Shown: positions 29,301 through 56,017 of the stretch, in pieces | How positions within the stretch are numbered: position 1 is the first letter of the stretch | How the letters are laid out: each line of letters starts with the position of its first letter | Source of the DNA: Podarcis liolepis | Taxonomy: Eukaryota | Strand: one strand, 5' to 3' | DNA length: 64,000 nucleotides | Assembly (NCBI GenBank): GCA_965112155.1 | Contig: OZ218110.1 | Made by a program: the position numbers and the translations under genes | The notes under the pieces: model-generated | Told to the model about the DNA's origin: nothing | Database searches by the model: none | Seen by the model: only the letters and a program-made list of their open reading frames with translations

Positions 29301-29459
29301 TTCTAGTACATCAGCCCCACTGAAGTGAGTAGCAATTATTCAAGAGCATCATATGGTGACTGTAAAGCAGATCTGTCCCATAGCAGGCGATTAAACCTGA
29401 AGGAGATCCGCCACAATTGTTGCCCAATGACACGAACTCAGCCTTGTCTTACCTGCCAT

Positions 29460-29558
29460 TCATCTTTCCACATCGTAGGCGGGCATAAGATACTCCTTTG
29501 GCACAATCCCCACCATGCTGTTCAGCTCTCCGACCCACCAGCCATACATGTTGTACTC
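29460..29558 (-). CDS. SKAP1: SKAP1 (Src kinase-associated phosphoprotein 1) last coding exon, SH3 C-terminal half ([32 protein letters not shown])
   Basis: - strand acceptor 'caattccag', SH3 WW..G.VP..Y motif; peptide matches SKAP1 rather than SKAP2; exon continues 7 nt past TGA to a CAG|gtaaga donor at 29453; synteny with SNX11. Confidence 0.95.
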
Positions 29559-29810
29559 CTGGAATTGAAGTAAGAACAGCGTTAAGAGAAATAGCTGGAT
29601 GAAGGGCCTTGATGTCATGGGCTTAGACTCCTGCCTCTGCCACAGAACTCGTAAGAACGTAAGGGCCTCCTGGGTCAGCCCAATGGCCCATCTAATCCAA
29701 CATGGGAGCCACAAACACAAGCAGCCTGAAAGGTTACAGCAAGACTGCACTGATTGTAAAACATACACATGCTCATCATTCTGGGTAGTGGTGGGATAAA
29801 TTGCAACATA

Positions 29811-30052
29811 CAGTGGTACCTCGGGTTAAGTACTTAATTCGTTCCGGAGGTCCGTTCTGAACCTGAAACTGTTCTTAACCTGAAGCACCACTTTAGCTAA
29901 TGGGGCCTCCTGCTGCTGCCGCTCCACCGGAGACCAATTTCTGTTCTTATCCTGAAGCAAAGTTCTTAACCTGAAGCACTATTTCTGGGTTAGCGGAGTG
30001 TGTAACCTGAAACATATGTAACCTGAAGTGTATGTAACCCGAGGTACCACTG
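29811..30052. mobile_element. Tc1/mariner MITE, same family as 13950
   Basis: TA TSD, perfect TIR CAGTGGTACCTCGGGTTA / TAACCCGAGGTACCACTG. Confidence 0.93.
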
Positions 30053-30127
30053 TACTCAGCATTAAGTGTCACTTGGTGTTGATAGAAAAGTTAAAGGGCT
30101 TAATGGATTGTGTCCAATGAGCACAGG

Positions 30128-30400
30128 ATCACAGAATTGTAGAGTTGGAAGAGGGTCATCTGGTTTCCTCTTTACCAGGTTAGACATACCCAATTCCCTC
30201 AACCCTTCCTCATAAGGCTTGGTTTCCAGACCCCTGATAATCTTGGCTGCCTTCCTCTGCACACATTGTAGCTTGTTAATATCTTTCTTAAATTGTGGTG
30301 CCCACAACTGGGCGCAGTACTCCAGGTGTGGTCTGAAAAGAGCAGGACTATTCCTTCCCATGATTGGGACACTATACTTCCGTACATGCATTTAAAATAG
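30128..30400 (-). mobile_element. CR1 LINE ORF2 C-terminal fragment plus 3' tail
   Basis: RPHLEYCAQLWAPQFKKDINKLQCVQRKAAKIIRGLETKPYEEGLRELG peptide; tail 'ttccaactctacaattctgtgat'. Confidence 0.9.
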
Positions 30401-33400
30401 TAATATGAATTATTATTTCTCATTTAATATTTTTTTGAACTTTTAATTTGATGTAATTTTGGTTAGCTGCCTTGGACATTGTAGAAAGACAGGATATAAT
30501 CAATTGCATTAAAACAATAAAAATACAACTGTCAAGGGTCTAACATATAAAATAAACCTGTTGGAATAAAGCAGCATTAAAGCAAGAGTCCCAAATGCTT
30601 TGTATTTCTCCCTTCACAAATGCTGCACCAAATAAAACTACTTTTAACTTACCATAACACTTAAGAATACAATATTAATGTTCATAGATAAGATTCTCTG
30701 TACATATAAAGGTTTGGACTAGGCTTCTGCCTGATGCACCAGTTTTCTAATGGGAAAGGGTTGTGTTTGTTTTTGCATATTCTTCAAACTGTATCCTTCC
30801 GCCTGCAGCTTGAAGTGGAAGAGTTCAGAAAAATATCTACCACTTAACCCTGTTGATTGTGCAAACTTGTCCTTACAGAGCCTTCTGCTACAGCACCCAG
30901 AAGAACTGCAAGTTCTGGCAGAAGTTCTGTTTTGGCTGTGGAGAACCCGGGACTGTCAGCTCTCTGGCCAGTGAGTGGGGCCATAGAGTCTTTGCCCTTC
31001 CCTTAGTGGTGGAAAACATGATTCTAGCAGCTGTTGGCCCACCGGACAATGGGTGAGGCAGAATGTCCTACATTTTGCTCCTTAAATAGCTGCAGGGATA
31101 TGTGAAGCAAAAGTAAAGAAGAGTTCATCTGAGCACATTCAGAGTGCTTTATTCTCTAGAATAACCTCTCTCATGGACACGTTAGGAGCAAGACGCTGCA
31201 AGCTGAAGGGTTTCCAGACAAGTGTCGCAGCATTCAGTATAAAGGCTATGGGTTGTTTCACACAAGTATGTTAATCACTTGTTGACTACGCAGCATCTAA
31301 TGGCGACATGCATGGCGAATGAGCCATTATAGATTAATCACCGCAAACATCTTTCATATCACCTGATGTCAGTTCATGCACAATGCTTTTCAGCCCAGAG
31401 TCAGTTCACACATTCTGCTAAAATAGCCAAGAACAGAGTAATGAAGTGATGTAGATGTGTGTGTGTGAACAAGCCCAAGGCACCAGGAAAAAACGGAGAA
31501 AGGGAGACTGTGCCAGATGGATGTAAAAGGCGAAGACTGAGACCGGACCCACCTTCTTCCAAGCACTGCCTTGGCCTGAGCACTGTGAGGTATTTTAAAA
31601 CAATTTCGGCTTTGATGGATTGCTGGGGAGCCAGCGATTGTTCATAATCAAAAAAGGAAGAATGGAATGCAAATGAGCACAAGCCGAGAACCATCGGCGC
31701 CGGGCGCTTTATTTCCCTGTGCTGTGCCAAAAAGAATTAAAACAACATTAAACTCCCAGCAATAATGTTTAAGCTCTCGTTTCCGAGTGCCAAATTGCAC
31801 CGCTCTGGATCATACAGATGTTCGTTAATTATGCTAATTTTTATTAAACTATTAAAATGGAGGAAGTTGCACTGGCAGAGCCCCGGCCCGAGGTGAACCC
31901 TGCCTTGCGTCTGGAGGTGCTAATTTGCCAGCTTCCCTCCATAAGCTGCTGATGCCGGAGGTTTGGGCTTTGCTTAGCGAGGGGGAATTTTTTTGTATGG
32001 GGTGATGGAGAGGATGACTTCTTCAGCAGAAAATGTTGAAACAAATTCCAGTGGGTGCTAGACGCTAGACCCTCTGGACCTGCACACATCCATTGAGCCA
32101 GAGCAGGCTTGACCATGAGGACAGAGGAGGTAGCTGTCTGAGGTGGCTCAGTTCAAGAGAGGCTCCTCATGCCACACCAGCAATCCTGAGTCCAGGCTCT
32201 TAACCCTCCTTTTGTGGTAGCTGGCTCCCCATGCAGAGTTGCTCCAGGACCTGTGCACTGTAGCTTAGAGTTAGCAGGGGACACCCCTGACTCATGCCAA
32301 CAAGGGCAGCAAGAATGCTGAGTTTGTCCTACAGCAATCCAGCATTAATAGGGGCTTTTTAAAAATTATTTTGCAGGCATGTTTCAGCACTGTGACATGT
32401 CTAAGCACTGTAACTTTGAGGTCAGCATCCCAAGCAGAGTTCAGTTTCAAAAATGATAGTGGATTTTGGAGTTCATTCCCAGCCCCTCTCCTGGGCCCAG
32501 GGTAAAAGGCCTCAACAAAAGGATATCCCGACTAAAACGTTATGTGCTTCAGGTTTCCTGCACCCCCTGATTCATAGGAGTACTGGTATGAAAGACAGGT
32601 ACATTGAAGACTGCCTAAAATTGGTGTGCTGAGTAGTGAAATCAAATGGAGGCGTGTAGTATCAAAAATTAGGAAAATCTGTAATGTTCTTGGCTTGAAG
32701 TCTGAACTGTGGCCTAGGGAATGGGATCACAGGATTTCACCTTACCTGTGCTGACTGCATGAACTGAAAGAGGTGTGTGTGTTATCCAAGATGTGTAAAA
32801 GGACCTCAAGAACAGAACATAAGCTTAGCGCAGGGGTGGCACCCCTGCCGATTAAAAAAGATGAAGCAAAAATATGCAAAGGAAGTAAAAATGAAATGCA
32901 AAATTTCTCTCCCCATCCCTTGGCTCCCAAATTTCTTGTCAGCAGCAAAGCTGAAACAGCTGCATGCGGATCAATCTTTCCTGGGCGTGGGGGTCCATGG
33001 AGGGATTGCACATGCACAGACATAGAAGAATTTATGTTGCTGATGTACACCAACTAATGGGAAAACAATATCTAAACCTATGGGAAAGGACATATAAACC
33101 AAAATAGGATGCCGACAAGCAACAAGGGGGACATTTCTTGGCTACTCTCAGCCTTCTCATGCGGCTGCTTTACTGCTTTCCGACAGCGTCACGGGTGTCC
33201 TTTGCATGCCTCCTGTCTCGATGTCTGGACTCTCTCTACCGTGCCACAAGAAAATGCCTTAGCAAGCAGGTAGCGGCAGGGGGTAGGGGGAGTAAAACTG
33301 GGAGGAAACAGCAGGCAGCTCTCGTAAGCCGGAAAAGAGAATGAAGACCCCTGCTACAGAGCCGCTCGCTTTTAATTTCCATCTGCCCCCATCCCCACTG

Positions 33401-33639
33401 TTTCCCTATTTGTAGAGCGTTCTGCATGACAGCTCAGCAACTACCCAAGATGACCACTGATACGTCTTTGAGGGGCAAGGCAGAAACAGCCTCAGGGCTG
33501 CAGCGCTCTTTCGCTTTCTGTATAAAATATGTGTGCATGTATATTACTGGGGTGCAAATCTAATGGGAAGTTATCACCCACTGAGTTCTTTCTCGGTAAG
33601 CCCAGATGCAGCGGCTGGTTGCAGTTACTCAGTGGTCAT

Positions 33640-33840
33640 AGGAATATAATGAATGTGCTTTATACTAAATCAGACCTTTGGTCTATTAAACCCAGTGCAA
33701 TGTACTCTGACTGGTGACGGCTCTCTAGCAAAGGTCCTTCCCAGTCCTACTCTGGGAGGTTTTGTAACTGGAGATGCCTATGCCTTGGAACAAACTTGTT
33801 ACTTTCTGCATGCACACGACATGTTCACCTGCTGAGCTAA
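33640..33840 (-). mobile_element. Degenerate Squam2-like SINE
   Basis: 'ttatactaaatcagacctttggtc...tactctgactggtgacggctctc...ggagatgcc...ttctgcatgca'. Confidence 0.5.
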
Positions 33841-35093
33841 ACCAAGGTAAGACCTGCTGCTTGTTAAAAGCTAGTTTTAGATGTTATATATACCCCACAT
33901 GCAGACAAGGAGAAGCCCCTTTATGTGTCGCAAATGCTTTATGCAGGAAGAGTGATGTTTAAAAGATCCTTACCAAATGTGTATCCCTAACCACAAATAG
34001 CAGGAGCATGCTTCTGATTCTGGCAGCAGCTTTCACAACTGCTACTCATGATGGGTGAAGTGCATTTAGTGAGTATTTTTAAATATTACTGTTCAGGATC
34101 TCATGTGCATTACATGTGCAGCATCTCTGTAAGTAAGCATTTCCTGCAGGCTGCTTGTCAGCGAGGCAACACTGAAACAGGCTGTCATTTGCAAATAATT
34201 AAGAGCAAAAATGAATTTGACTCAGTGTGTTGTGTGTGTGTGTGTTTGCTCTAGCAAGTTCTCCTTGCTACAATTTATTTCCAAAAATGTGAATCTATAT
34301 TCTCCTAATTATGGTTGCTCTGGGATTTAGAGCTAAGCTCTTGCAAAATTCATCCCACTTGCATGAGCTGCCAACAGCACTGACAGTGGAATAAGTGAGA
34401 CAATTTGCAGAACTCTAAACTAAGCTGTTGACGGGAACAGCAAACTACAATATGGCCACAGATAAGATTGACAGCGAGGAGGAAGGCTGGGCTGAATTCC
34501 TAGTCAATCACCAAAGAGGTTGGTTAATTTTTAGACGCAAGAGGTGTCTGGAATAAACACTCAAAGGAATTCCTTCCTTCGGTCCCAGAAGTGTATGCAT
34601 TGGATATTCTGTGGTTACTCAAAGTATACAGTAACTACATGTTGCTATCCAAGATGGGGTTGCTATCCAAAATAGCAATCTGGTTTTGAGTTCTCCCCTT
34701 CCTCCTCCATAACTTGTAGTAAAACTAACAGATGCAACATCATCATCTTGCATTTTTCCTTGGCACTGACAACCAGTGATTTATCTCTATTGATTTATTG
34801 CAATTATTTATATCCTGCCTTCCAGGATGTGGCAAATCCTTCCATGATGTGAGGAATTTTATGTGAAGCAATGACGAGGAAACACGCAGCACGACATCAA
34901 GAAATTGGCTACATTTTACTACACGTTACGGAGCCGGGAGAACTCAATACAGAACTTCTGCTTTTGCTGGTAGCCCCGTATTTCTCATCATGTACAGCTC
35001 TGCCCTCACTATGAATGGAAAGAATCACTACACATGCTCAGAGGCACTCTTTTTTTCATGTACTTAGTTTTCTCCAGAGCAGAGCCCTGGCAC

Positions 35094-35276
35094 CAGGGCC
35101 GGCCCACACATGAGGCAAGGTGCAGTGACGGCCCACTGGCAGCAGATCCCAATGTTGATCTCCCCCTCACACCTTTGTTCCTGATGTAGATCTTCCCTCA
35201 TCCCTTCTTCCCTAGTGGGAAAGGGGTGCTATTTTGGGGTCTGCCTCAGGTGCCAAAATGTCATGGGCTGGCCCTG
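35094..35276. mobile_element. hAT-type MITE, 183 bp
   Basis: TIR CAGGGCCGGCCCA / TGGGCTGGCCCTG; 8-bp TSD cctggcac/cttggcac. Confidence 0.85.
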
Positions 35277-36269
35277 CTTGGCACGGAAAACAGATTTTGG
35301 CTCCTGACTAAGCCTCAGGGTTTGGAGGCAAACTCTTTTCTCTATAGTGAGACATTACCTGTTCTAAAACAAAAGGCTGGCTCCACACCCCACCTTGCCA
35401 ACGCTGATCTAGCAATATTTACTCCTCAACCCCAACTTAGCTCTAGTTACAGTCCAAGCACCTCGTAAACAACCCCGATCCTACTTTGGCGATGTAGTTA
35501 ATCAGCCCCAGTCGCTCACAGAAGATCAATGGCGGGATGATGGATGCCCGAGGAGAAAAGCCAAAATCAATCACAGGCTTATCGGTATATGATTGCTTGG
35601 CCCCATTATTAGTGCCGGAGCATCATACATTATTGTTAGTAAAATGGAGGCCTCTAATTCATAGGTGAGCTGTGTCACGCATTATTGGAGGGTCGCTTGA
35701 CATGGGAGCGTTTTATATTGGGTCGCTGCAGACATCTGTTTACCTCAAAAACTGGCCCAGGGCTGAAAGCTGGCTCAGAACAAAATTTAGGGCTTAACAC
35801 TGGAAAGGAAGAAACCTGAGCACAGTGGCCAGTTTTTGAGAATGAAAGAGAGGTGCTAGGGTCTGAATGTCCCCCAGGAAATACAGTGACAGCCCAAGAT
35901 GTTTCTCCTGTGCTCATGTGCAGCTCCCGCCCCGCCCCCCGTCATTTCAAAGGGGCTTGCATAGAGAAACTTCCCTGTAGGTAGTGCTCTATGAATGAGA
36001 CCTCTTTGTCTCTTTAGTGCCCAAAACCTATTTTCTGAGATGACAGCCTACGTTGCCTCATGGTCAGGCAGAAAGTCATGACGTGGCCTCTGCCATGGAA
36101 GGCTAGCCTTCTTAATCCTAGATATCTCTTCATAGGAGCTTGTACTTTTCTTCCATTTCCTCCAGGATATCAGGAACTCCTGCAACTAGGGAAGGAGTTG
36201 CTTTTGTCTACTCCCAAGATGAGAAGAGTGTGGAACCTCACAGTGTGGAGATGGGGTGCGGGAGGGAGA

Positions 36270-36575
36270 GAGAAGATCTGGGAAATTACAGAGTGGCCAA
36301 TCTGACTCTGATACCTTGGAACACACTAGAACAGAGGAAAAAGGAGTCAGTTGATAATCATCTGTGTAACAATGTAGTGATAAGTGACTTTGATTGGGTT
36401 ATAAGCTTAGTAGATTGTGGGAATGTAGTGGACATAATTTATCTTTATTTCAGCATAGCATTTGATAAAGTTCCCCATGATATTTGGTTAGCAAACTGGT
36501 TAAATGCAGGGTATACAATAATCCCATCAGGTGGATCCAGAGCAGGAAAAATCGAGCATGTTCATCAATGGTTTC
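36270..36575 (+). mobile_element. CR1 LINE reverse-transcriptase fragment (degenerate)
   Basis: EDLGNYRVANLT...VDCGNVVDIIYLYFSIAFDKVPHD resembles CR1 GNYRPVSLT...YLDFSKAFDKVPH. Confidence 0.85.
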
Positions 36576-36729
36576 TCATCAACCTGGGTCATGTTTTTGA
36601 GCATGGTACCACAAGGATCTGAGCACAAGCACACTATTCCTTCCTGTGGTTTCCAGCAACTGATATTCAGAAGCATTGCTGCCTCTGACTGTGAAGGCAG
36701 AACATAGCCATTGGGGCTAGTAATCACCT

Positions 36730-37068
36730 TTACAGAATAACTGGGCACAGTACTGCAGATAAGGTCTGACCAGTGCAGGATAAAATGATTTTTAAAAAGA
36801 CTTGGAAACTATGGTGCTACTAATGCAGCCTAAAATTGTATTATCTTTTTTTTTTGGCAGCTCCACACTGCTGATCCATGTTCAGCTTGTGATTGATTAT
36901 AATTCTGAGATCTAATCAATTCTTTATTACTATGGTCAATGACCAGATCCTGAGATCCTTTTTGTATGCTGCCAAGCCAGATGTCCCCCATACTATCCTT
37001 GTGCATTTGATTTTTTAAAAATTCGTCTATATTGAATTTCCTTTTGTTAGTTTCAGCCCAGTTTTCCA
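36730..37068 (-). mobile_element. CR1 LINE fragment
   Basis: - strand ENWAETNKRKFN...MHKDSMGDIWLGS; typical CR1 ORF2 post-RT region. Confidence 0.75.
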
Positions 37069-37350
37069 TTGGCACCACACTTTTAAAAAGGATGCAGACA
37101 AACTTGAATAGGTTCAGAAGAGGGCAAAAATTGTACAATGAAAGGTTGAGGGAACTGGGTGTGATTAGCCAGGTGAAGAGAAGACTGAAGGCAGATATGA
37201 GAATAAACTTCAAATCTCTGAAGGGCTCTCTTATAGAACAGGGTACTTATTTTCCGCTGCCCCAGTGGGCAGGACTAGTTCTAATGGGCTTAAATTACAG
37301 ATGGTAGATTTCAGTTAAACATTAGGAGAAACCTCTCAACAATAAGCACT
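37069..37350 (+). mobile_element. CR1 LINE ORF2 C-terminal fragment
   Basis: YNERLRELG...KRRLKADM...FKSLKG peptide and 'cagttaaacattaggagaaacct'. Confidence 0.8.
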
Positions 37351-38289
37351 GATAAATGAAGACTGGGAATCCAAGGGACCTAATGAGACCCTCAAGACTT
37401 TTCTATCTGTTCCTTGGGACTTTTCCTAGGTCACACCTCTTAAAGGCTCTGCTCTGCTGGAGTGTGTTTTCCCTTCAGACCAGTGTGCCTGATAGACTAC
37501 AATATGGATATGCAACAGCTCTGAGAGCTTTAAAGGAGGCAGAGGGACATGATTGGTTTTCTGGCATTACCTGATTCCATGGACCAGGAATGTGTTATTT
37601 GCATCTTGTGTGGAATTGTCTGAAGTTCCTCCCTCTGAACAGCTGTATGGGTGATGCATTCCTGTTCTAATTGGTGCTTGAACGAGTGCTTAATTTCTGA
37701 CTATATGTGATTATTTCTCACAAACACCTGTGAGAAATTCAGGTGAATTCAGTTGTTTTAACTTCTAAGTGCTGAAGACCAGTTGTGAAGTGCTGGCGGA
37801 CAAAACACGTTCTATAAACTAACACTGGACATATCTGGAGAGTGCTTAGTTCAATATGGGCACTTCACATCAGAGTTGTGATTAGACAGTTGGCAGGCAC
37901 AAGTGTCACTGATCATACCTTTTCCTATGGATACAAAAACAATTCAATGGCACATAGATTCCCCCAAGGATTCATACCATGAATGTTATATCTAGTCATA
38001 ACATTAATGTCATAACAGGAGTGTATGGAGTGTTAGGGGAGGGTACTGCTTCTGGTGGGGGACATGTTGTGCTCCTTCTGGGGTAATTTATCCACCTTTG
38101 GTCCCCACCTTGCACTCAGCTCCCACCTGTGGCTCCTAGAAGCTGTCAGCATGTGACAGAGCCAGGGAATGGCTTTGACTAGCCAGCTAAACCAGGTGAG
38201 GGTAGCTGAAGGGACTCAAACCCTCAGTGGTTAGGGACTTTCCCTGCATGCAAAGCCAGGCTCTGGGGAATTGAGTGGATAAGCTGTTA

Positions 38290-39795
38290 CTAGATTTATC
38301 TGCCAGGAGAAGAAACAAGAATAAAGTATAAATTACTGACAAATGCCAAGGAAAGAGGTGGATTCCCCCTACCAGATCTGAGATTATATTATGAGGCGTC
38401 TTATCTTTCCTGGTTAAAGGAATGGATATCGCTGAAAAACAGTTCCATATTAGATCTTGAAAGTCATGATAACAGATTTGGCTGGCATGCCTATTTGTGG
38501 CATGACATAAAGCTTTTCTGAATCACGTTATAAGGAAACCGGTGTATGAAGTATGGGACAAATATAAAAAATTATTGGAACACAAAACACCATGGTGGCT
38601 CTCCCCACTTGAAACAATATTGGTGAAAAAAAGGAACATGAGAAATGATTGGGCAACATATAAAGAATTATTAATAGAAGTAGATCAATATTTAAAATTA
38701 AGGAGGTTCAAAGATATAAGAGAATTAGAAACCGACTGGTTGCAATCAGTGGTGTAGCTAGCTGCTCGGGTGCCTGGTGTGTGTGTGTGGGGGTGTGTGT
38801 CCTGCAGCCAGGGACAACACGATCTGCACCGATGGGGGCAGTGTGACCCACGCCGATGGGGGTGGGGCCAGCCTCTCCGATGCTTGGAGCCTCTCTGCCG
38901 CCTCCCCCTCAGCTGTAGGGCAGCTGAGGGAGAGGCAGTAGGCAGATGCAAGTCCCACGTTGCCGTTTCAGGCAGTGCAGAACCTGCAGGCACCTAAGTC
39001 ACCACGTCACTCCTAAAAAGTTTTGTGAGCCCATTTTTTAAAAAAAACCCTCATTTTGTCAAACCCCCCCCCCAGTGATGACACCCAGGGAGGACCGCAC
39101 CCCCTTCCTCCACCACTGGTTGCAATATCACCAGCTTAATGAAGTGTTTAAGTTGGACAAAAAGAAGGGTTTTCTAAATATACATATATATATATCACAT
39201 GTGGTGGTCATGTAAGATGATAAAAGACTTCTGGGAAATGATATGTAATGAATTGGGGGGGAAATGTTGAAAATAACTTATCCTAAGAAACCAGAAGCTT
39301 TTCTCTTAGGTATTATAGGTCCAGAGATTCCGAAGGACCAGATGAAACTATTCATGTACGTGGCTACAGCTGCCTGGACTCTGTTAGCCCAGAAATGGAA
39401 AGATGGTACAATTCTGACCAAGGAAGTGGCAGATAAAACTGATGAACTATGCTGAGATGGCAAAACTTACAGGAATAATTAGAAACCAGGAAGAGGCGGA
39501 CTTTAATTAAGGATGGGGAAAGTCTACAATCTACTTGAAAAACGATTGTAACACTTTGGTAGGAATTGACACGATTGACACACTTTGGTAGGAATGACAG
39601 AAAACTTGTGGTAAAAATCTGAACTATGGAATGATAGAGGATTTATAAGAATGGATTTATCAAAGAGATGCAGAGGGGGAAATCACAATATTAAGATCGA
39701 CAATGGGGCAGGGAGGGAAGTCAAAGGGGATTTCATGTTTATCTTCTTATTTTGCTTGTATATGTAAAATAGAAAATGCAAAATCTAAATAAATA
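38290..39795 (+). mobile_element. L1-clade LINE 3' fragment, interrupted by a DNA element
   Basis: Peptides KERGGFPLPDLRLYYEAS, GWHAYLW, KTPWWLSPLE, HMWWSC, PEAFLLGI, LAQKWK; ends in an A-rich tail. Confidence 0.85.
38747..39118. mobile_element. Non-autonomous hAT-type element nested in L1, 372 bp
   Basis: TIR CAGTGGTG / CACCACTG; perfect 8-bp TSD GTTGCAAT at 38739-38746 and 39119-39126. Confidence 0.9.
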
Positions 39796-40443
39796 AGAAA
39801 GTAAGTTCAGGCGAGTAGCCTTTTCTCTCTTGGTAAAGGTGGCATACTTCAATTGCCTTTCATAAATCCTCTGCCCACACCTTTAACCACATTCCGGTTT
39901 GCTGCCTTTCTTTCTTTCCATGTGCTTACATTCACTCCTCCTCCTCCTAGGCTGGTTCTTTACGTATTCAAACGCTTCTTCCCATAAATCACAATTAGTA
40001 TGAATTATTAAATCTACACAACATGCACAACCATCCCATATTACTCCTTTGCTATTAATATAATCAGAACGCTGCAAAACTCCCACAAGGAACTTCATGG
40101 GATAGAGGCAAAAAAAGTGTGCAGTTAATTTCCAGGAGGAGGCAGGACAATTTGGGGATGAACACTGGAAGCAGAGATATCTTGTAATAAGGTAAGCCTT
40201 CCTCAGATGCCTGGTTTTGGCAGCTCCCATTCATTTCAATCAGGCATGTACAGGACAGCTTCCCAACGGGTTATGCCCTTGTTTATTATGAGTGCAAGGG
40301 CATGCCAGTTAGATTTTCCACATCAGGCATCAAAAGATGGTGGACTCACTCATGGAAGGAAGAGAAAGAGTGCACAATAATGTCTGACTTTGATTGTTTT
40401 CTTAAGTTATCAAAAGCTCCCCCTCTCTTTAGGTACCTAAATA

Positions 40444-40613
40444 AAAGTAAAAGGACCCCTGACCGTTAGGTCCAGTCGCGGACGACTCTGGGGTTGCGGT
40501 GCTCATCTCGCTTTACTGGTACAGCTTCTGGGTCATGTGGCCAGCATGACTAAGCCGCTTCTGGCGAACCAGAGCAGCGCACAGAAATGCCGTTTACGCC
40601 ACCCATGTCCCTA
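40444..40613 (-). mobile_element. Sauria SINE 3' fragment (lacertid-like)
   Basis: 'ggacccctgaccgttaggtccagtcgcggacgactctggggttgcggtgctcatctcgc...gtcatgtggccagcatgactaagccgcttctggcgaaccagagcagcgc'; 11-bp TSD gtacctaaata. Confidence 0.88.
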
Positions 40614-41890
40614 GTACCTAAATACGGGTACCCTAATGCCTCAATATGCTCTTGATAGGGGCTTGTGGCACTTAGTTGTAATCTCAGAGGTGAGAGAGGT
40701 GAGATACACCAATGCAAGAGGAATTGTATTTCGTAGGGAATGCATCCTAATGTTGAGGGGGAAATTTAACATAATAAAATTTAAGACTTAAATCTTGATG
40801 TGATGGCCTGGGATTCCGATTCTGAGAGTGAACCGGAGTTCATCAAGCACACTTGATGAACTTTAAGGTAAAAAAGTTTGGTATCAACTTGTCAATTTTA
40901 CCACTTTTTTACCAACTTGTTCGGCTTTTCACAAAATTCCTTAAAGCCAACAGCATCAACAAATAAAATAAAAATTAAAAAAATCATTTGTTTTTGTAAC
41001 GATGCTTCAATTAAGAGAATTCTGCTCCCCTACCAAAGTGTAAAAGTGCTAGTATATTTGCCTTTGTTTCCTGCAGACAAGTGCATTATTTAAAAACAAG
41101 GCGGTCCCCCTGCCCTTTTTCCATTTCCTTGAACTTCTATTTGGAGGAAGAATCTTGTGCAACTGAAATAAAGTTGTATGCTGAATTGCGATCGGTGGTT
41201 TGTCCTAGCACTTTGTATTATTTTACTTACCTTGGGAATTTAAAAAAAATAACAATGGGTGTCCAGCTTAGATGCCCCCTTGTTTTTTATTATGTTGAAG
41301 ACAGTGTGCACCCCCATATCTAAGCTGGCGGGGTTGGGGTGCTCCTGATATAAGATCTCCCCCCCTTGCTTTGGGAGAGTGACAGACTTGATGACCTTCT
41401 GGTCCTTCCCAGTTAAACGAATTCCATGATTACATATTAGTTCTTCTTATGTTTGCAAAGTGCTTTACAATCCTAATACCATTTATCCTCCACCCACCCC
41501 ATTAAAAAAAAAGAAAAGGAAAGCATCCAAGTTCAGAGACAATAGCTTGGTTACAGCATTTCTCACCCTCTTCCTCCCCCTTCCACAATCACCCCAAGCC
41601 AATGGGATCGCAAAAATCACGTGGTGCTGCCATATTAATATTTATTCCATAAAAGCGTGGCGGCTCCTTACCACTCCGCTGCGCCGCTCTGACCGCAGTG
41701 CCAACCCTCAGGCACCGCAACACAATTTGGAAACAATGTGACGGAAATGTTTAATCTGTGCAGCCCATCTGTGCTGCGTATTTCTCCACATCTCCCCGAG
41801 AGAGGCGCCTTTGAATCTCCACACTGCCTTTAATATTCTCCTAAATCATTCCCCCCACTGCACTTCAAGGGCCATTGCTACAGTTTCACA

Positions 41891-41907
41891 GGTTCATCGA
41901 AAGTGCA
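41891..41907 (+). promoter_or_regulatory. DR5 retinoic-acid response element-like site GGTTCA tcgaa AGTGCA
   Basis: 15/17 identical to the RARb2/Hoxa1-3' DR5 GGTTCAccgaaAGTTCA; sits at the end of a repeat-free CNE-like block. Confidence 0.55.
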
Positions 41908-42498
41908 CCAGGGAGGGAGGGGGGATGTTCCAGGGGGTGTGTGTGGAGGGAAGGGGGGGGGAGAAGCAGGGGTAACAGGGCATTTGTTACTTGAGATTTT
42001 TTTATTTCATTTTATACTAATTTCCAGGGATTACTCTTGCTCGTGCCCTTTGCAAAGAGGCAGGGGGTGGGGGGAAACACACCCCAAATAAAGACATCAG
42101 GCAGCTGGCATGAGTAAGGTTGCTTTTAAAGAAAGCTGGTTGAGACAGAGGGAAACATTATTCCCTAAGAGTCCAGCTCTAATCAGCTTTCCAATTTCAG
42201 GCCATGGGGCAACTGTCTGTCCTATGAGCTTCAATGGGGATGCCTATGATGAACTGATTTGGCAGGTCCCATTAAGTATATGAAGAAAATCACTTTGTTT
42301 GTCATTCTGAGATTTGGAGATCCGTGGCCCCATAGCTGTCTAGGGCAGCCACTACTGGAGTAACTTGCTCATGTAAGCCACCAGACCAATACAAGCCTCA
42401 TAGGCGCCCATGTGCCAAACCAGCACAGAGGTCTGCTACACTGGGTATGCATAGGCCGATTGTTTAGGACACAACAGCATTTGTCCAGCAGCACAGTA

Positions 42499-42734
42499 CA
42501 GTGGCACCTTGGTTTACGAACTTACGGTAATCCGTTCCAGAAGTCTGTTCTTAAGCCAAAGTGTTCTTAAACAGGCGTGCTTTCCCATAGCAGCGGGGGA
42601 CTCAACTTACAAATGGAACACACTCAACAGGAAATGAAACATGTTCTTATTCCAAGGCAAAGTTCACAAACCAAAACACCTACTTCTGGGTTTGCAGCGT
42701 TCTTAATCCAAGTTCTTAAACCAAGGTACCACTG
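42499..42734. mobile_element. Tc1/mariner MITE, related subfamily, 236 bp
   Basis: TA TSD, TIR CAGTGGCACCTTGGTTTA / TAAACCAAGGTACCACTG. Confidence 0.88.
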
Positions 42735-45511
42735 TAATGCATGTGTGATCTCCTGCATCATTTTACAGTGAGGCTCAGAGCTTGCACACTGTCTACTTTT
42801 CAACCTCAGATCCAGTAGAACATCCACAGTCACCTGCTATTCCATACTTCCATGAACTGGGTTACTAAAGTACAAAAGCAGCTGGTTGGTGTGTCACCTT
42901 AGATCTGCTGCGCATGCCACTTAGATGGTCCTGGTTGCTGCCACCTCTGTGGTTGCTCCCATGCCACATCAGGAGTATTTAGAGCTTCTCATCTGATTAG
43001 GATTTCTTTGTGTGTTTATACAACACACCAGATAGGAGTGCTCTCCAGAATAAAACACAGATCAAAATGCAGCTATTATTCAGTTTTGGCACTTCTCTGA
43101 ATTTTGTAAGGTAGTTTTTGGCTCAAAAAACCCCCTAACACAATGCATATAGAAAAATGCATATTGCAGTTAAAAGTCTGTACAAAAATGCATGTGTTAG
43201 GGTGGAATTCACACAATAATATACATTATGCAGTAAAATGCATATAAAAATGTGTTTAAAATAATGCAAATTTTCATGCATTTAAAAAAACACCAGCTGA
43301 TTGATGCAGAATAGTTATGTATTGACATACTAAATTGATATGGACTGGAAATATGCTGAACGGCATTTCCTACAACCCAGTAACAAACTTCAGTAAAAAG
43401 ATGGATTTCCTCCACCTTTCAGAGACATGAGTATGGTCATGGAAAAAAGCAGAGAACATGTATGTACAATGTGGGCACTTCCTGTGTATCTCTTTGGCAT
43501 ATGCAGGAAAAAATCAAGATGACTTTCAGAAATCATGCTGAAATTCACAGACTAGACAGAACAATCTTTTAGGGTGCAGGCCAGTATATTTTTAGTCCAT
43601 TGCGAGGATGTGAACTCTTGAGTGGGAATTTTTAATGGACCAATCTTGTGGAAGTTATCCAGTCTCCTAACAAGAGTGGAAAAGCAGTAAGTTTTATTTG
43701 TCTTGCTTTCAGTGGATGCATATTTATTTCTAGACCAAGGGAATGGTCAAATCCAATAAAGCCCCAACTCTCAAGCCACATGGATCTGGGCCTGGGCAGT
43801 AACTAGGTGGAAGACCGTGCGGGATTCCTTCCTACGCTACTCTGAACTCCTTGGAGGAAATGTGGACCCCAAGTGATAATAAAAATAATAAATTTCTATA
43901 TATAACTGCCCTCACCTAACCTTTAGAAGCAGAGAATATTGCAACATATAAAGTGTAGACATAATAATATTATATTAAATTATAGCTTTGGAAGTAGTAT
44001 TGTATAATATATCTATAAAAGCACACCTTTGAAATGTACTGCTAAAATAAACCTTACTAATTTTTTGCCCAACTTTCATTACTGTCAGAGGTTGCACAGG
44101 CTTTGGTGAATTTGGTGTAGTATTTAGCTGAAAGTTTTACTGATGGGAATGAATGTATATATAGAGAGAGCGCTAGTCCAAATTTCAGCTTCCCAGATTA
44201 TAAAATTTGGATTTGCATTTTTGCTTCTGTGGTGAGACGCTAAATAGTTTTGACATCCTGAAATCCAGATTTCATCCACGAGATGCTGTCTGCTGTCTTT
44301 ATAAGTCTTGCTTGGTTGGAATCAATTTTTCTAAGCTCAAGTTCAAATTGGACAGTTTCTCATTGCTTGAAGTTGTCTGCACTTTCAGTTTCTACCAATA
44401 TCTGTGTCAGAGCTGATCAAAAAGTATGTGCGCAGCAACCCAGAATTAGACAAAATATGAATCTATGAGCAGCCATGCACCTCAAAACTCCTGTGGTGTC
44501 CAGGATGCCCTTGATTTGAACATAAAATTTAGCTTGTCCTTTGCAATCTTCCTATTTTTACTAGGTGCTCACTTTCAGCTGGATTTTGCCCACACCTATA
44601 TCTGATGGCTGCTGAGAAACACTGTAGAAACTATTAAACACTGCAAGACGTGGCTACCCTCTTCTTTTAGGGAAGTGCACATTTGTTAGGAAGTACTCAT
44701 TTCCCTGGAACATTCCTGCTGTATAGCGTGACCATCCTGAGGTTCTCAACGCCCGATAGAATAGACACTCCTACAAACTCCAAACATTAGGACTCCCCAA
44801 TCCCACACCAAGACCCACAACGTCCCACAAAACCACTGCTAATTTATGTCACATTGTCTGTGTAATGCATTGTATTCCTTATTTAACAATCTGTACTTGA
44901 CATGGAGGATCAGATGCACCCATTTCCTTGTTGAATTTATGTGTTTCTCTCTTTCTCATTCATACACATACATCCATACACTTAACCATCCCTGCCTTGC
45001 CATTCATGGGCCATTCAGGTGGAGAATTGTGGAGGTACTATGAGCAATATAGCTTTTATTAACGGCAGTGCTGCTCCCAGGTTTGTGTGGGCATGAGGCT
45101 TTCCTCACCTTGAGCTAAAGCTTTCTGCACCTATCCCTCCCTCCTGCAAGCTTTAATCCAGTCCCCACTGCCCTCCTGCACACCAGCAGGGCAGCAAGGA
45201 TTCGGATTCAGAATTGTGCCCTGCCCGAGTCTCTTCTTGAAGATACGTTCAAATATCCATGAGAATCCCAGGCAGCTGCCTGATCTCGGTAGATACTGGT
45301 ACAGGCTAAGACAACTTGCTTTCCTGCTTTTGGGGTGGTGGTGAGGTCCCGGGGGCGGGAGGGGGGGAGCATGCTGGGGTAAATGTACTTTGAGAGCTTT
45401 GATCCCTCATTTCGAAATCCAATGGGGTCAAAAAAGGTACATTGTATACCTTCAAAAGGAACGAATGAATCATGGTAAGAGCTGTGATTGTTTCAGCAAA
45501 CCCTGTTCATG

Positions 45512-45543
<32 letters not shown>

Positions 45544-45730
45544 TTGAGGGAAGGAGGAGGGGAGCTGGACGCATTCTGGTTTGCCAAGATTTTCAGGCCG
45601 GTGCTGTTCGTTACATCATCTGTTCAACAGAGGTGTTGCTATAGCAGCTGCTTATAGCTTCATTTCCTGGATACCCCCCCAGGGGGGTGTCACAGCCGGA
45701 TCCACCTGCTCTTTTACCCTACCCTCGGCG

Positions 45731-45747
45731 GGGTCATCTTAAGGTCG
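45731..45747 (+). promoter_or_regulatory. DR5 RARE-like site GGGTCA tctta AGGTCG
   Basis: One mismatch from RGKTCA-N5-RGKTCA, at the start of a CpG-retaining CNE-like block. Confidence 0.4.
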
Positions 45748-48700
45748 CCAAAATAAATGAACGCCGTTGCTAATGATCTGTTTGCTGGCTGTTTATGCTC
45801 CGCGAGTGTCAGGGGCGCTCACATTTAGTAAACTCATTATGGGTCCAATTAGACTTCACCATTGCTAGATATTTAACTCTTTTTTTCCTTTTAAATTAGC
45901 ATTTTAATAACATTCTATCCAGCAAGGATTGGGGTGGGGGGTGGGGATGGAGAACAAAATGACCATTTTTCACGGACAAAAACTTCTTTAGCCGTAGGTG
46001 GAACTTTAATAGCAGATCTGTGAGGGCGGCAAAAGGGAGCAGGTCCACCTTCCATTCACCCCCACCCCCATGCCAGAGAGGAAACGATAGAAGGGGAAAG
46101 GGGGGTGGGGGAGATAAAGGAAACATTTCTATTTGCTTTATCACACACTCAATTTCCTAAATTTGTTCAGCAGCCAATTATTTTCAGCGTTAACGTCTTG
46201 AGCCGCTCGCATCTGATGAAAATGAGCAGCCATCAGAGTTAAACTTTGGAAGTGACCTGTGAAGGGGTTTGGAATAATTACGTAAAGGAGTCAATTTATT
46301 TCAGATTCCCCTGGCTGGAAGAACAATCCAGAGGAAAGAGGAAAAGTAAGAAGGGGGGGGGGGGGGAGAGAGAGATTAAAAGAAACAAGTGCTGATTAGA
46401 TGATTAGAATTATCAAAATATCTCTTGACTGGAACCCCCCTGGAGGGCCACTTCTCTTAAAAAGGTCACTCCAATTATTCTAGTGGTTTTTTCCCATTCC
46501 GTTAGATGACTGTGCGGAGAAATTCTTCCGCCCTCCCCGCCCTCAGCAACCTGTAATGACCAATTCTGCAATAGAAAGGGTGATGGAAAGCGGAAAACGA
46601 GTCATCGCATGCACTAGTTTTTACCAAGGAGCAGTGGCTGGTTTAAAGAAATAAGAATGGCTTTACTTTGGTCCATTTGCAGCACAGCCTTGCTTGTTGT
46701 CAATGGAGTTTACTCACATCCTAGGTAAGTATTCATAGGATTGCAGCCTTAGTCCAGCACCCTCTCTAAAAGTTGCGTTAGAGGCCCCTGAAAAATCCCC
46801 AAGCAGGGCACAATGGAGAGAGCCGTTCTGTTTGGCCCTGGCATCTGGTAGACAGTGATATAGCATCTTTGAACAAGGAGGCTCTCTTTCAAGCTATCAC
46901 AGCTACTAGCCATTGTTAGATCTTCTCATAGGCATCTGGCTGGCCACTGTGGGAACAGCAAGCTGGACTTTGAGCTGATTCATCTTATCTGTTTACTAAG
47001 AATGTGTTCTGATTATTTTAAAAGGCCATTTACTTTCCATGAAATCAAGCGGTTCATGATTTTGTGAGCTTATGTCATGCCCTCCCTCCCCTGTTCTTCG
47101 CATGCTTAAAGGCCCCAATTATTTAAGCTTTTCTTCATGAGTGGGTGGGCTGATACACCACTCTTCATCAACCCAGATTCTCTGCCACACTTGCTCATAT
47201 CCATATTAAGGTCAGGCATGCATCTTAAAAATGTCATCTGCACCAGCCTTACGAATATTAACTTTGGGACTGTGAATGAAGCCTGTTCTCAAGATCCAAA
47301 TCCATTCTGGCACCTGCAGTAAATGCTGAATCCCAGGCTAGTTAGAAGTGTCGTGTGTGGAGCCTGCTTTGTGATGGCTAAGGTCACTTGCAGAGATCTG
47401 CACGCACCAGGTTTTTGCACCCTGCTTCAAACAGCTGAAGAAGCATGCCCCAAAGCGGGTATGCATAATAAAAACAAAACAGTGCATTTCTATAGGTGCT
47501 TTCCCTGACTATTCAAAGCACATTGTGTACTGCACATGATCTCAGTCCTGGTCTACACATGCAACAGAATGAGATGGTATATGTCATCTGTAAATGTGCT
47601 ACTGCACTCATGTCCTCCTGGTGGGCTTCTCATAGGCATCTATGGGAACAAAATGCTGGGCAAGATGGCCCTTTATCCTGATCCAGCAGGGCTCTTCATA
47701 AATTCTTATTGAATGTTTGCTCCCAAAGGAGAAAGATTCTCGCCTCAGCCACCTGCTAAACTCTTTTCCTACTTGTAGTGTGTTGTGTGTATATATATAT
47801 GTATACGCTTGTGTATGCATGTGTTTGGAGGGGAATATTAAAAAATGCTCCCCATTTCATTCTGTTGCCATGTCTAGAACTGGTCTCGGTTATCCTGACA
47901 ACAGTCCCATCACCTAGGTTCAGTATTATTTCCATATTATAGATAAGAGATTGTTGTCAATATGGTGTGAGAACTGCTAAGGAATAGCTTCCAGGTGGTC
48001 AAGCTTTATATCACATGAGAAGCTCCAAAAGTATGGAAGGCCCAGATCCTGTGGTCATGTCTCGTCCCTGCACTGCACTATCCTCGGAGCCACTGACACT
48101 GGCATAGGAAGTCACCATGAGACCTGGCAGGTCCATGCAATTGGAGTTTCTGTACATTACTAATTTAGCATGAAATGTGACTAACCACTGGGAAGCATTT
48201 TCTTTGAGATGACCATGCTGCATCAGCATCTAGCTGGGTAGCTACGCTAGTAGGTTGTAGCGAAAATGAATACAGTGGCACAAGCCTCTTTGGAACAGTA
48301 CTAAGTTCATTCAGTAACATATAAATACATACTGAAAAAGAATGTGCTGCTAAAGGCTACTAGGGCTTCCAGTTTGCAACTCACACACTTAAGACACTAC
48401 ACTTAGCAGCCTACCCGAATTACAAACACGTTGACAAGCTTCACATAACTGCTCCACCATGTAAGCTCTGTGTTTAGAAGCTTATGCTTTCAGCAGCTAG
48501 CATGACCCAAGTCCAACACAAGTCCTGGGATGGTGAAAAATAATATCAGAATCCACAATGAAATTCAAACCCATACTTCACCCAAGTATTTTACTGCTTT
48601 CTGTAATTCTACATTGGCTGGAATCTATAACTGCATTATCTTCTACATTTAGAAATGGTCTTCCTATGGAAGAAGAAGATAGATTTGTAGGGCAATGGAG

Positions 48701-48937
48701 TTTGGAAACATCCTCATTTTGTTCAGTACAAATATATCTCCAAGGTTGAGCTTGTGGGGCTGGGGGAGGTCTGCTTGCAGAAAAAGGCATGAATGAATGG
48801 TGTAAATTGGGTAATGCCTGCAATGTCACCAATACATCTTTTGTGAGGAAAATAAATATATATGTGCTTTATAAAACTAAAGCAGTAAGCCCACCTGAAG
48901 TATGAGAGAAAGGTGAAAAATAGGTAGGTGACCCAAG

Positions 48938-49050
48938 GCGGGATTCAACTAAGTTTTACTCAGAGTAGAAACATTGTAATTAATGGACCCGACTTGTCCC
49001 ATTGAGTTTAGTGGGTCTGTTCTGAGTAAAATATAGTTGAATGCCACCCC
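48938..49050. mobile_element. Short hairpin-forming (MITE-like) repeat
   Basis: Arms 'gattcaactaagttttactcagagtaga' and 'tctgttctgagtaaaatatagttgaat' are imperfect inverted repeats. Confidence 0.6.
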
Positions 49051-49839
49051 TAGTGTTTTATCTTGTTGGACAGTACATTTGTCATTGAAAGCTTGGCTCA
49101 CACTGCTGGTGAATATTTCACTGTGTCTTTCATTTCAAAAACTAGTTGAACTAGGGGATAGTTGAATGCTAGTGAGGGCAAGTAAATACATCTACTCCAT
49201 GAGCCACAATATATAAAGGGAAGCTGTCCTGTGCTGCTCTTTCACTGTTCCCATCCATTTCAATGGGGCTAGTGCTGGAGAACTCCATTTCAATGGGGCT
49301 TGTGCTCCATGTCAATGTGTGCTGAGTAGGGGTACCAACTGAGTTTTCCATGCAGGCATCCAACTGACTCTACCCAGTCCTGCCTGCACCCAATCTCATA
49401 TTAATAATCATCACCTCTGACAAATGCTGCTCAAAAGGCTCAAACTCTCGAAGGTGAAAACGTTCAGAACGAATGCAAAGAACGCTTCTCTTCTGGAACT
49501 TCATAATGTTTTGCCAGTACACTTCCACACTTCCCTGTTCCTACCGCTGTGTATATTGCAACCTGTAACAATCTTGAAATTTTCTGAGAAGAAGTTTCAG
49601 CTGTGACATGCGGGCGATGGATTCAGGCAATAGTCATCTAAAAGCTTGCTATGTGGGCCCGACTGAATTTACTCATTTAGTTTGTAAGCCTTGAGGGAAG
49701 GGGCTTTGTCTCATCTTTTTGGTAGATATGAGCTGCTTTTGAAGAAGATCTCTTTGAAAAATGGTATAAAAATATACCAACAAATAAAAATAAATACACA
49801 TACAGAAGCCCGAGGTGGTTAAGTCCTGGAATATAAAGA

Positions 49840-49990
49840 TGTAGGAAATAGGAAGCTGCCTTACACTAAAACATCCTTTCCAGGGTTTTAGACAGAGGAC
49901 TCTTTCAGCCCTACTCAGAGATGCTGTAGGTTAAACCGGGGACCTTCTGAATGCAAAAACCATGCTCTGCCACTAAGTTGCAAGCCTTCT
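49840..49990 (-). mobile_element. Squam2-like SINE with internal deletion
   Basis: 'aggaaataggaagctgcctta...tccagggttttagacag...ggggaccttctgaatgcaaa...tgctctgccactaag'. Confidence 0.65.
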
Positions 49991-52900
49991 GCCTTTTTTC
50001 AAATATTTCAGCACATTAAAAACAATGGCACAAGTAGAAAACTAGCATATCGGAGACATTGTTTGGAGGTATTTTGTAGTTTTTGTTTTACATAGGGGAG
50101 CATTCAAATTCCCCCCCCCCATGAAGTCTGAAATGGTACAGTCCATTCTTTCAGTTCAGATCTCAACAATCTTCATTCTGTTGCATCTACAGCTCCAGCT
50201 ATGGAGAAATCACCATGCACTGCTATCACCATAATCCAGTCAAGGTGTGAGAAATCTGGAAAACCGAGCTGGGATAATGCTGGGCTTTTAACAGCAAGGT
50301 TGGAGGTGACCGTCTTCCTTCTCACAATGTTGTTAAAGTCACCACGGAGTAGGATTCTAAGTTATTTCTGTGTTTGTTCCTAAATATCTGAATGTCAACA
50401 TGATTACCTGAATACCTCAATATCAACATGGCAAGATGCAATCTGAATTATCAATGAATGCAGAGACCATACCAAACTCGTACGGAACTCAGCTTGTGGT
50501 AGCCACTATATAGAAAACAGTGTGAATTGATATTTACTCTGTAGTAAGTTGGCGGGGGGAACTTGGGCTCTCCCACCAAGACAAGTAGTAATAAAGGTAT
50601 CAGAGCTGGTAGGAGGGGAGGAGAAGGAAGAGCCATGGCTCCATATCCTTCAATATTTTCTATTTTATATGCTTGTATCAGCCTGATTTTCATACCAATG
50701 GTTATTGCCCATGTTCTCCTTTCCCTGCTTATTATTACACATTAATGCTCTTTTCTGCCATTGTTACGCTGCATTCAATTACTCTGCAATAGTCTGCTGT
50801 CCACCATTTCAAAAGCCAGCATGATGCCTGTTTAGGTTAAGAAGGCTGAGAAGCAAAAAGGTGCTTCCAGATTGGCAGCCTCTATCACTACCCAATCACT
50901 GCTTTTTCACTGTAGAATTGCAGTGGACTTTCCACACTTGTGGGGTGAGAGTAGCCCTTTTGTGTGCATACATCACACTATCTTCCATCCACACTAGTGG
51001 ATAACAACTGGGGCAGAAAAGAAGCCATTCATATGAGTATGTAATTTCATTAATAATTTCCCCCCTATTGTTTCTAATTTGCTTTAAAGGACTTTGAAAT
51101 AAAATTTAAAAATCAATAACTTGTTTAAAATACTTGAAAGTGTTTAGGCTAAATTGTAAGAATGGGGGAACAGAGACCACATTGGTAAAATAACAGCAAC
51201 TGAAAAGACCAGGATAGATAGTGTGACGATTTTCCACAGCAAAATTTTAATTGTGCTAAACCCCCCTTTTTATTTAAGTGCTATTGTACAAATATTTCAG
51301 CATTTGGTTATTTATTTATATGTAGGCAAAAAGGCATTTTATTGCAATTTAAGAGCTCAGTTAAAGAAACCAAACACATGCTGATAAAATGGTGCTGCCA
51401 GAAAAGATAATAGATAAATTGTACGGAAATTGATGTGTGGCAGTAGGCTCTCCCACTCAGCATGTCACTGCCCACGTTAAAACAGCACCTCTTAAAAAGA
51501 TGGAAGAGTAAGAGCTAAGGCGATCTACACCTGGAGACTGCGTTACTGTTGCATTCTTTTTCTTTTCAAGTCAAATTTTCTGCAATCTGCAGAAAGAAGC
51601 AGCATGACGAAAACAGAAGAGAACAACAACTGGATGCTGACATTATACTGACACCCCGTACAAAGTGAGTGAACGGAGCATAGCTATTCCATAGCAAGTA
51701 GCTAGTGTGGAAGCACCCTGAAAAAACAGAATTGCCCTACGACAGGTTATCAGTAGCTCAACCCTCACAGCAGCTGCTGCGGCGAGTGTGGCATAGCAAG
51801 ATGTGCACTGCACAGCGGCTTCACATTCATGCATGTGCACCAGAGGCAAAGATGTGTACGCTCCACCCCCATACCTTCAGAGATTTAATTCCAGAGAAAT
51901 GGGTGAGAAGCTGAATTGTGAAGAAGGACAACTCTACCAACTCATAATAACACAATTCAACAAAGCATCCCCCAAGGACAAAAAAAGAACGACAAAAATA
52001 GTGGCAATGATGTAACAGGGGACAGGAACCACATGTGTTCTTACATTTGAGATTCCCCATTACGGAAATAGTTGCTCATCATGCCCCTGTTTTTAGCACA
52101 AGTTCTTGAACAGTAGGGGGGCATCTTTATATCTTAGTGAGCCCTTGACTTTTCCCAGGTGTTGTTGAGTATCCTGCAGAAGAACACAAGAGTGGTGAGG
52201 TCCACTGCCCTGACAGTTTGCAACCCCAGCCCAGGGCAAAGCCATCTATCCCATCTCCAACACCCTAGAGAAGGCACCAATGTCAAAATCTGAGTATCTC
52301 CCTCACTGAACCTTTCTGGTGAGCCTCATACAGATTTCTCCATATTGCGCTAGTGACTTCTACCACAAGTATTCCTCTACAGACGTTATGTTGGACATGA
52401 CCTGAACCTTCCAGGCCAAAATGTAGGTGGGGTGGGTTTGGTTTTTTCTGGCAACAGGAAGTTTGAGCAGAGACACCTGCACTTGGGTACAGAAAGAAAC
52501 AGCTCTAAGAAGCCTGCTTTTCTCTCACTCAGCTACAAATAGAGCCTTAGAGAAATCCAGATGGTCCTAATTTTGGGGAGCAGGTGCAGTGACTCAGTGC
52601 TTTTGATCCCTGAGGCTCAGACATGTGGGATGCTTCCACTGGTGCTTGTCCCCACCAGTCCACACTGATGGGGACCACAGGGACAGTGCCATTCACATGG
52701 CTGGTTCACCATGATGAGTGCAGGGGAAGGTGCGTCTCTGGGAGGACGTTATTTGCCTTTCTCTAGGGCACCTCCTGCCTGTTCAGCTGTGCATGAGATC
52801 CTGTCATTTGGAGGTACCCTGAGATGCTATTTTCTTACGCTTAGGTGTGTGACAAAACTTTCCACAGCAAGAAGGGGTAGCATTACCCCATTTCCCAGGA

Positions 52901-55900: not shown

Positions 55901-55978
55901 CAAACTGCATTAGTTGTTGAGTTACAGAACCAGGTGGTGGTAGTTCTTCCACACTGATTAACACAGAGTATAAAAGCG

Positions 55979-55981
<3 letters not shown>

Positions 55982-56015
<34 letters not shown>
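55982..56015. repeat. (TG)n microsatellite
   Basis: Direct reading. Confidence 0.95.

Positions 56016-56017
<2 letters not shown>

Follow-up and report, generated by a model that had tools for sequence, protein, structure and literature searches.

A candidate retinoic acid-responsive enhancer with a Hoxa1-type DR5-like motif in intron 11 of lizard SKAP1

The locus described here raises the question of whether a short block of DNA deep inside SKAP1 could be a remote retinoic acid (RA) enhancer of HOXB. The window, that is, the whole stretch of 64,000 nucleotides that was analyzed (G000:C14:33,976,001-34,040,000), comes from a lacertid lizard genome of 1.57 Gb, and the closest named proteins to the locus genes are those of Podarcis (97% for SKAP1 and 100% for CYP26A1). 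The gene order assumed in a preceding sequence-only reading, SNX11, SKAP1 and HOXB1, is seen in the lizard genome, on strands +, - and - respectively. A run of 200 N lies within SNX11 (window positions 4382-4581). In a tblastn search with Podarcis SKAP1, the gene is laid out as four coding pieces, an intron of ~195 kb, seven exons, an intron of 39,106 bp and the last coding exon, the latter marking the 3' end of the 39,106-bp intron (Table 1). Numbering the large intron 4, in line with the mouse and zebrafish annotations, we infer that this is intron 11 of 12; equivalence across species is deduced from exon counting. The block is placed inside this intron, between HOXB1 and SNX11, at 339.6 kb from the HOXB1 homeobox, 279-295 kb from the SKAP1 start and ~42 kb from the CpG-rich start of SNX11.

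Table 1 Features of the SKAP1 intron-11 locus and related elements of the lizard genome. Plain numbers are window positions.
Feature	Position	Strand	Remarks
SNX11 PX-domain exon	4986..5072	+	neighbor gene; CpG-rich start near window position 1
CTCF-consensus-like site	24149..24162	-	faces SNX11
SKAP1 last coding exon	29453..29558	-	SH3 C-terminal half, stop, 7 nt, GT donor
SKAP1 intron 11	29559..64000	-	39,106 bp, GT...AG; splits SH3; runs 4.7 kb beyond the window
SKAP1 preceding SH3 exon	C14:34,044,665-34,044,774		
Candidate enhancer block	41580..41910	.	SKAP1 intron 11; single-copy; 14 CpG (o/e 0.74)
CCAAT box	41599..41603	+	with E-box and TATA-like site, promoter-like order on + (rival reading)
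E-box CACGTG	41618..41623	.	palindromic
TTTATGG, Cdx / posterior-Hox type site	41647..41653	-	overlaps TATA-like CATAAAA on +
CTTTGAA, TCF/LEF type site	41809..41815	+	common motif, 0.5 expected per 700 bp
One-mismatch DR2	41883..41896	+	overlaps the DR5-like motif; perfect half-site common to both (composite DR2/DR5)
DR5-like RARE	41891..41907	+	GGTTCA (perfect 5' half-site), spacer tcgaa, AGTGCA (3' half-site, one mismatch, T4>G)
G-rich tract, canonical G4 pattern	41948..41980	+	left out of the proposed mechanism
Second motif-rich stretch	45400..46700	.	intron 11; single-copy but for a simple repeat; one-mismatch DR5s at 45425 and 45731
CTCF-consensus-like site	57105..57118	+	faces HOXB; first of 8 same-strand sites along SKAP1
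HOXB1 and HOXA1 3' DR5s	G000:C14:34347400-34347416 and G000:C13:36849574-36849590	- and -	
CYP26A1 / RARB promoter DR5s	G000:C5:40359779 / G000:C13:41835568		

The motif that drew attention to the block, CAGGTTCAtcgaaAGTGCA, is found at positions 41889-41907, where the sequence-only reading had placed it and called it a DR5 RARE. Its half-sites (41891-41896 and 41902-41907) form a direct repeat with five bases between them, so that the DR5 spacing stands, as does a fit with at most one mismatch; strict RGKTCA is not found in both half-sites, the 3' one carrying G at position 4, and the site is therefore not classed as a canonical DR5. The ≤1-mismatch working rule of Berenguer 2020 does accept it, scored here against RGKTCA rather than with their HOMER matrix. 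In the part of the PMC7259794 table available, a conserved mouse Dhrs3 DR5 likewise has G at position 4 of the 3' half-site; nothing relevant to an AGTGCA half-site emerged among the matches examined in the RARE literature. Judged by its letters, the site is likely to resemble a Hoxa1-type DR5 enhancer in its predicted working, yet it is non-canonical as a DR5.

The mouse and human reference DR5 strings were taken from the available parts of PMC8997856 and the PMC7259794 table. The string that had been quoted for both Hoxa1 and RARb2 is correct for mouse and human and also fits lizard HOXA1, but not the lizard RARB promoter, in which the DR5 spacer is tggaa; the statement that four of the five spacer bases of the intron-11 site are identical to those of the Hoxa1 3'/RARb2 DR5 is correct. 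We take the gene in question to be RARB from its exon and promoter sequence. The lizard HOXB1 3' DR5 is identical to the HOXA1 3' DR5 over the 17-mer, and a block of 11 bases directly downstream is also common to the two; by this likeness, the pair appears to be a paralogous element retained since the cluster duplication. In mouse Hoxb1, the DR5 spacer has diverged. The CYP26A1 promoter DR5 of the lizard has the spacer ccgaa, and so does a further DR5 at G000:C11:49793253-49793269 (-), with the 3' half-site AGTGCA. Descent of the intron-11 site from the HOXA1/HOXB1 3' RARE by duplication was considered and rejected, because the flanks of the block are unrelated to those of HOXA1 and HOXB1; for the same reason, the common cgaa ending of the spacer is likely to reflect a shared binding affinity preference rather than descent.

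How far does the motif exceed chance? As a generic one-mismatch DR5, it does not. Six matches to RGKTCA-n5-RGKTCA with at most one mismatch occur in the window, compared with 5.36 ± 2.42 expected (42 of 100 shuffles reach six), and such sites number 7 in intron 11, 43 in 464 kb and 76 in 754 kb; RGKTCA-n5-AGTGCA occurs 870 times genome-wide. When 4-kb tiles of the surrounding region are ranked by DR1/DR2/DR5 density, none of the highest lies in intron 11, and the peak is found in intron 4. The more specific claim of a Hoxa1-type likeness is borne out: the site shares 15 of 17 bases with the lizard HOXA1 and HOXB1 3' DR5s, and Markov models of order 1-5 predict only 0.003-0.005 matches to the HOXA1 17-mer with up to two mismatches in intron 11, 0.025-0.046 in the 340-kb span from SKAP1 to HOXB1, and about 120-210 genome-wide. 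Within the 754 kb scanned, only the intron-11 site, HOXA1 and HOXB1 come within two mismatches. A narrow pattern has three matches in the entire genome (HOXA1, HOXB1 and the intron-11 site), with one for the reversed control and 0.4-0.9 expected; this pattern was derived from the intron-11 site itself, and one match is therefore present by construction. The looser RGTTCA-nnGAA-AGTKCA matches 36 sites genome-wide (22 for the control), five of which have an nCGAA spacer: the HOXA1 3' and HOXB1 3' elements, the CYP26A1 promoter, the intron-11 site and one site on C11.

The block that ends with the motif had been described as repeat-free and CpG-retaining, and both properties hold. It has a single match in the 1.57-Gb genome and a local repeat search gave no match inside it; its 14 CpG (o/e 0.74) compare with window medians of 3 and 0.19. 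The CpG effect is only moderate, because 8.5% reach 14 CpG under a best-window null; at least 14 CpG are present in 1.8% of window tiles and in 4.3% of SKAP1 tiles. By the best-window measure, the HOXA1 and HOXB1 3' DR5s of the lizard score 9 and 11. The homeodomain cores that had been singled out are present at unremarkable counts (TAAT/ATTA, 4 vs 2.85 expected; TTTATT, 1 vs 0.25), and the adjoining G-rich tract conforms to the canonical G4 pattern but is one of six in the window; accordingly, both were dropped as evidence, being of ordinary frequency. The block is non-coding, single-copy and outside known RNA families. An Rfam search of the window returned no match and the predicted fold of positions 41770-41980 is ordinary (z -0.14), on which grounds a structured RNA was rejected. 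Both Cdx- and TCF-type sites lie within 330 bp of three of the 76 one-mismatch DR5s in 754 kb, a combination defined post hoc; the three are the intron-11 site and two in a dense intron-4 cluster.

This cluster, at G000:C14:34236000-34240000, is CpG-rich and the densest in DR1/DR2/DR5 motifs of the 464 kb (nine in 4 kb), and is likely to be the counterpart of the published intron-4 RAR sites. Within intron 11, the DR5s at 45425 and 45731 are weaker than the site at 41891, and the stretch around them (45400-46700) holds further half-sites; it may add more elements to a cluster of enhancers in intron 11 and could match the multi-peak cluster of zebrafish. Additional CpG-retaining blocks of the intron lie at window positions 31500-31990, 33100-33490, 54560-55090 and 60260-61540.

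That introns of SKAP1 house RA enhancers for HOXB is a concept already published. López-Pérez 2021 (PMC8608873), in the text and tables available, describes an RA-dependent, reporter-tested enhancer in intron 4 of zebrafish skap1, whose pattern resembles that of hoxb1b; identity of the lizard block with this HCNE was rejected, since the block lies in intron 11. The supplementary tables of the same study contain further data on skap1. RARaa peaks 595, 596 and 597a/b fall at chr12:28,766,787-28,768,828 (Table S4), and peak 595, with a -log10 q of 246, is the strongest among the skap1 peaks 590-597 (136 for the published intron-4 peak 594; for peak 591 the score is 1573, equivalent to about 157). 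Peaks 595, 596 and 597b are overlapped by three ATAC peaks induced by RA, which Table S8 places in 'skap1 intron 11 of 12', with FDR values of 2e-4, 9e-5 and 7e-7. The nearest-TSS rule attributed these intron-11 peaks to psme3. In the lists available, psme3 is missing from the RA- and BMS-regulated genes, which include hoxb1b, b5b, b6b, b8b and skap1. The available text of PMC8608873 does not discuss the intron-11 peaks, which the 'red box' sites of its Fig. 4 may mark, and peaks 595 and 596 appear by name in none of the other tables available, that of CNEs included; in the latter, both mouse Skap1 rows lie ~90 kb from the TSS, one being labelled intron 4, and according to the Fig. 4 legend the intron-4 sites are the only ones to align between fish and human. 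These points count against our reading of intron 11. The strong zebrafish RAR peaks attributed to psme3 by nearest-gene assignment, and the intron-11 RAR cluster that they form, are a useful lead.

Independent studies, as far as their available parts go, connect SKAP1 introns with HOXB. Deletion of a SKAP1-intron enhancer lowers HOXB7 and HOXB8, and its activation raises both genes, not SKAP1 (PMC8017555). In E9.5 embryos, Hoxb1 contacts move into Skap1 (PMC9286507), and in ES cells Snx11 and Hoxb1 do not pair (10.1101/111773). A Skap1 RARE has no entry in the available table of PMC7259794 (Berenguer 2020) or in its four text supplements. The literature searched, mostly open-access text without figures, yielded no account of a RARE in intron 11, and neither the 17-mer nor its reverse complement was found in any paper.

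Conservation was approached in two further ways. Near-identical DNA of the block is present in 23 of the 24 runs listed (word share 0.71-1.00; 8 studies, one possibly the source), which we do not count as conservation because it concerns near-identical DNA only, with no flank control. A metagenome scan gave 0 of 32 matches with related flanks and is uninformative, because the HOXA1-like flank serving as positive control did not appear either. The CNE-like character that the sequence-only reading ascribed to the block is putative. The comparison with SKAP2 introns, which the sequence-only reading had recommended, found no counterpart: the matching SKAP2 intron scores 34 against a null mean of 31.1 and maximum of 40, and contains no one-mismatch DR5. 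A SKAP2 paralogue of the block was thus rejected, the similarity being within the null range. Elsewhere in the window, 46 bp (46922-46967) match the same SKAP2 intron at 85% (G000:C13:36645029-36645074); this is probably a repeat fragment, because two more spots of the window match the same C13 stretch.

Taken together, we give about even chances to the block being an RA-responsive enhancer of SKAP1 intron 11, with its DR5 predicted to be bound by RXR/RAR, that loops over ~340 kb onto HOXB. On a DR5, RXR occupies the 5' half-site and RAR the 3' half-site. Here the perfect 5' half-site would be taken by RXR and AGTGCA by RAR; RA would cause the exchange of co-repressor for co-activator at the DR5, and the nearby Cdx- and TCF-type sites would contribute posterior and Wnt signals. 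As an enhancer, the block would be of composite DR2/DR5 type and somewhat sub-optimal, and it would have several companions in intron 11. Lying where the regulatory landscape of SKAP1 has its far edge, it would bind its receptors, respond to RA and loop to HOXB. SKAP1 is probably co-activated in passing. The label of bystander once attached to SKAP1 is too strong, because the gene is itself strongly RA-induced.

A more ambitious version, which we put forward only tentatively and consider doubtful, holds that the strongest RAR-bound site of zebrafish skap1 has its tetrapod counterpart in the block, and that the block belongs to a second, undescribed intron-11 cluster; this cluster would extend the HOXB RA landscape across all of SKAP1 to a boundary 340 kb away, and the block would join RAR, Cdx and Wnt/TCF input in ~330 bp. 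If real, the intron-11 enhancer would mean that HOXB activation along the anterior-posterior axis receives RA input from a far-distal site, which can be tested, and would explain why SKAP1 has remained linked to HOXB over its entire length. The model of HOXB regulation is unchanged, RA enhancers for HOXB in SKAP1 introns being already in print.

An alternative that we consider unlikely is that the RARE is real but mainly serves SKAP1 itself, or SNX11/CBX1, rather than HOXB. SKAP1 comes into question as a target because it is RA-induced: in the endoderm of zebrafish, RA increases skap1 about 12- to 15-fold (PMC8608873), and SKAP1 heads a multi-species RA meta-analysis (PMC7923837). Its start is nearly as distant from the block as HOXB1, however, and the enhancer activation experiment cited above raised HOXB7/8 and not SKAP1. 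SNX11 is far closer than HOXB1 (~42 vs 340 kb), and both SNX11 and HOXB2 have an eQTL in a SNP at this locus (PMC6826789); yet intron-11 peaks exist in zebrafish, where the neighbor is psme3, a gene other than snx11 and absent from the RA lists available. The arrangement of CTCF-like sites also bears on the choice of target. A motif scan with the CTCF consensus found 11 sites, compared with a column-shuffled mean of 3.2 (one of 40 shuffled patterns reached 11). All eight sites from 57105 to C14:34,260,621 face HOXB, two near HOXB1, up to G000:C14:34351609, are reversed, the one at 24149 points away from HOXB, and a further one lies on the + strand beyond SNX11. By this motif scan, the block is flanked by sites of divergent orientation (24149 and 57105), and just a weak + site (40132) lies to its left. 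Such polarity suggests a domain edge in or near intron 11, and the block may lie at or beyond the edge of the HOXB domain, a possible position that weakens its assignment to HOXB.

It is clearly improbable, in our estimate, that the block is a genuine enhancer run by Cdx, Wnt and bHLH factors or by another nuclear receptor of COUP-TF type, the DR5 remaining unused by RAR. The off-consensus 3' half-site, the location of the DR5 at the block edge and the Cdx-, TCF- and E-box sites would agree with such an enhancer, but the likeness to RAR-target DR5s extends to the spacer, and in zebrafish the matching intron has RAR binding (PMC8608873). More improbable still would be a neutral intron sequence, with a chance look-alike noticed owing to the nearby HOXB. 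The generic DR5 count and the abundance of RGKTCA-n5-AGTGCA would be consistent with this, as would the 36 CpG-rich blocks that SKAP1 holds; against it, few such close matches are expected over the SKAP1-HOXB1 span, and the site is found in a single-copy, CpG-retaining block of an intron that has RAR peaks in fish. Least probable of all is that the block drives a + strand transcript running antisense to SKAP1, as its promoter and with the DR5 as downstream RA input, likened to the RA-induced non-coding RNAs beside Hox clusters and compatible with enhancer function: CCAAT (41599), CACGTG (41618) and CATAAAA (41648) follow in promoter order and spacing, an order seen once in 754 kb with a pattern set post hoc, and the block retains CpG, but CATAAAA can just as well be read as the Cdx-type site on the opposite strand, and the absence of Rfam matches in the window and the ordinary fold speak against such an RNA.

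The preferred reading, an RA-responsive intron-11 enhancer of HOXB, can be set beside several known systems. With the Hoxa1 3' and RARb2 DR5s, the site has 15 of 17 bases in common, but it differs in its AGTGCA half-site and unrelated flanks, and whereas those elements lie a few kb from their gene or at its promoter, the block is ~340 kb from HOXB1. The shadow enhancers with RAREs in the HoxB 3' flank, reportedly described by Nolte et al. 2013 as acting at long range from 3' of Hoxb1, would likewise be long-range RA-responsive modules on that side of the cluster, although they are said to be located between Hoxb1 and Skap1, much nearer than the lizard block. These HoxB enhancers are cited in the available parts of PMC10233718 and PMC8788451. 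The human enhancer at rs9303542, as presented in the part available of PMC8017555, is also SKAP1-intronic and acts on HOXB7/HOXB8 by deletion and CRISPRa; it differs in having been studied in cancer cell lines, and the available text draws no link to RA. The zebrafish skap1 intron-4 element (RARaa peak 594) resembles the lizard site in being DR5-like, SKAP1-intronic and far 3' of HOXB, and in being read as a hoxb RA enhancer; it was reporter-tested (PMC8608873), whereas the lizard block is a candidate located in intron 11, ~340 kb from HOXB1. Finally, the zebrafish intron-11 peaks, equivalent to the lizard block by position rather than by sequence comparison, lie in the same numbered intron and, in the tables available, form a multi-element cluster that is bound by RAR and opened by RA.
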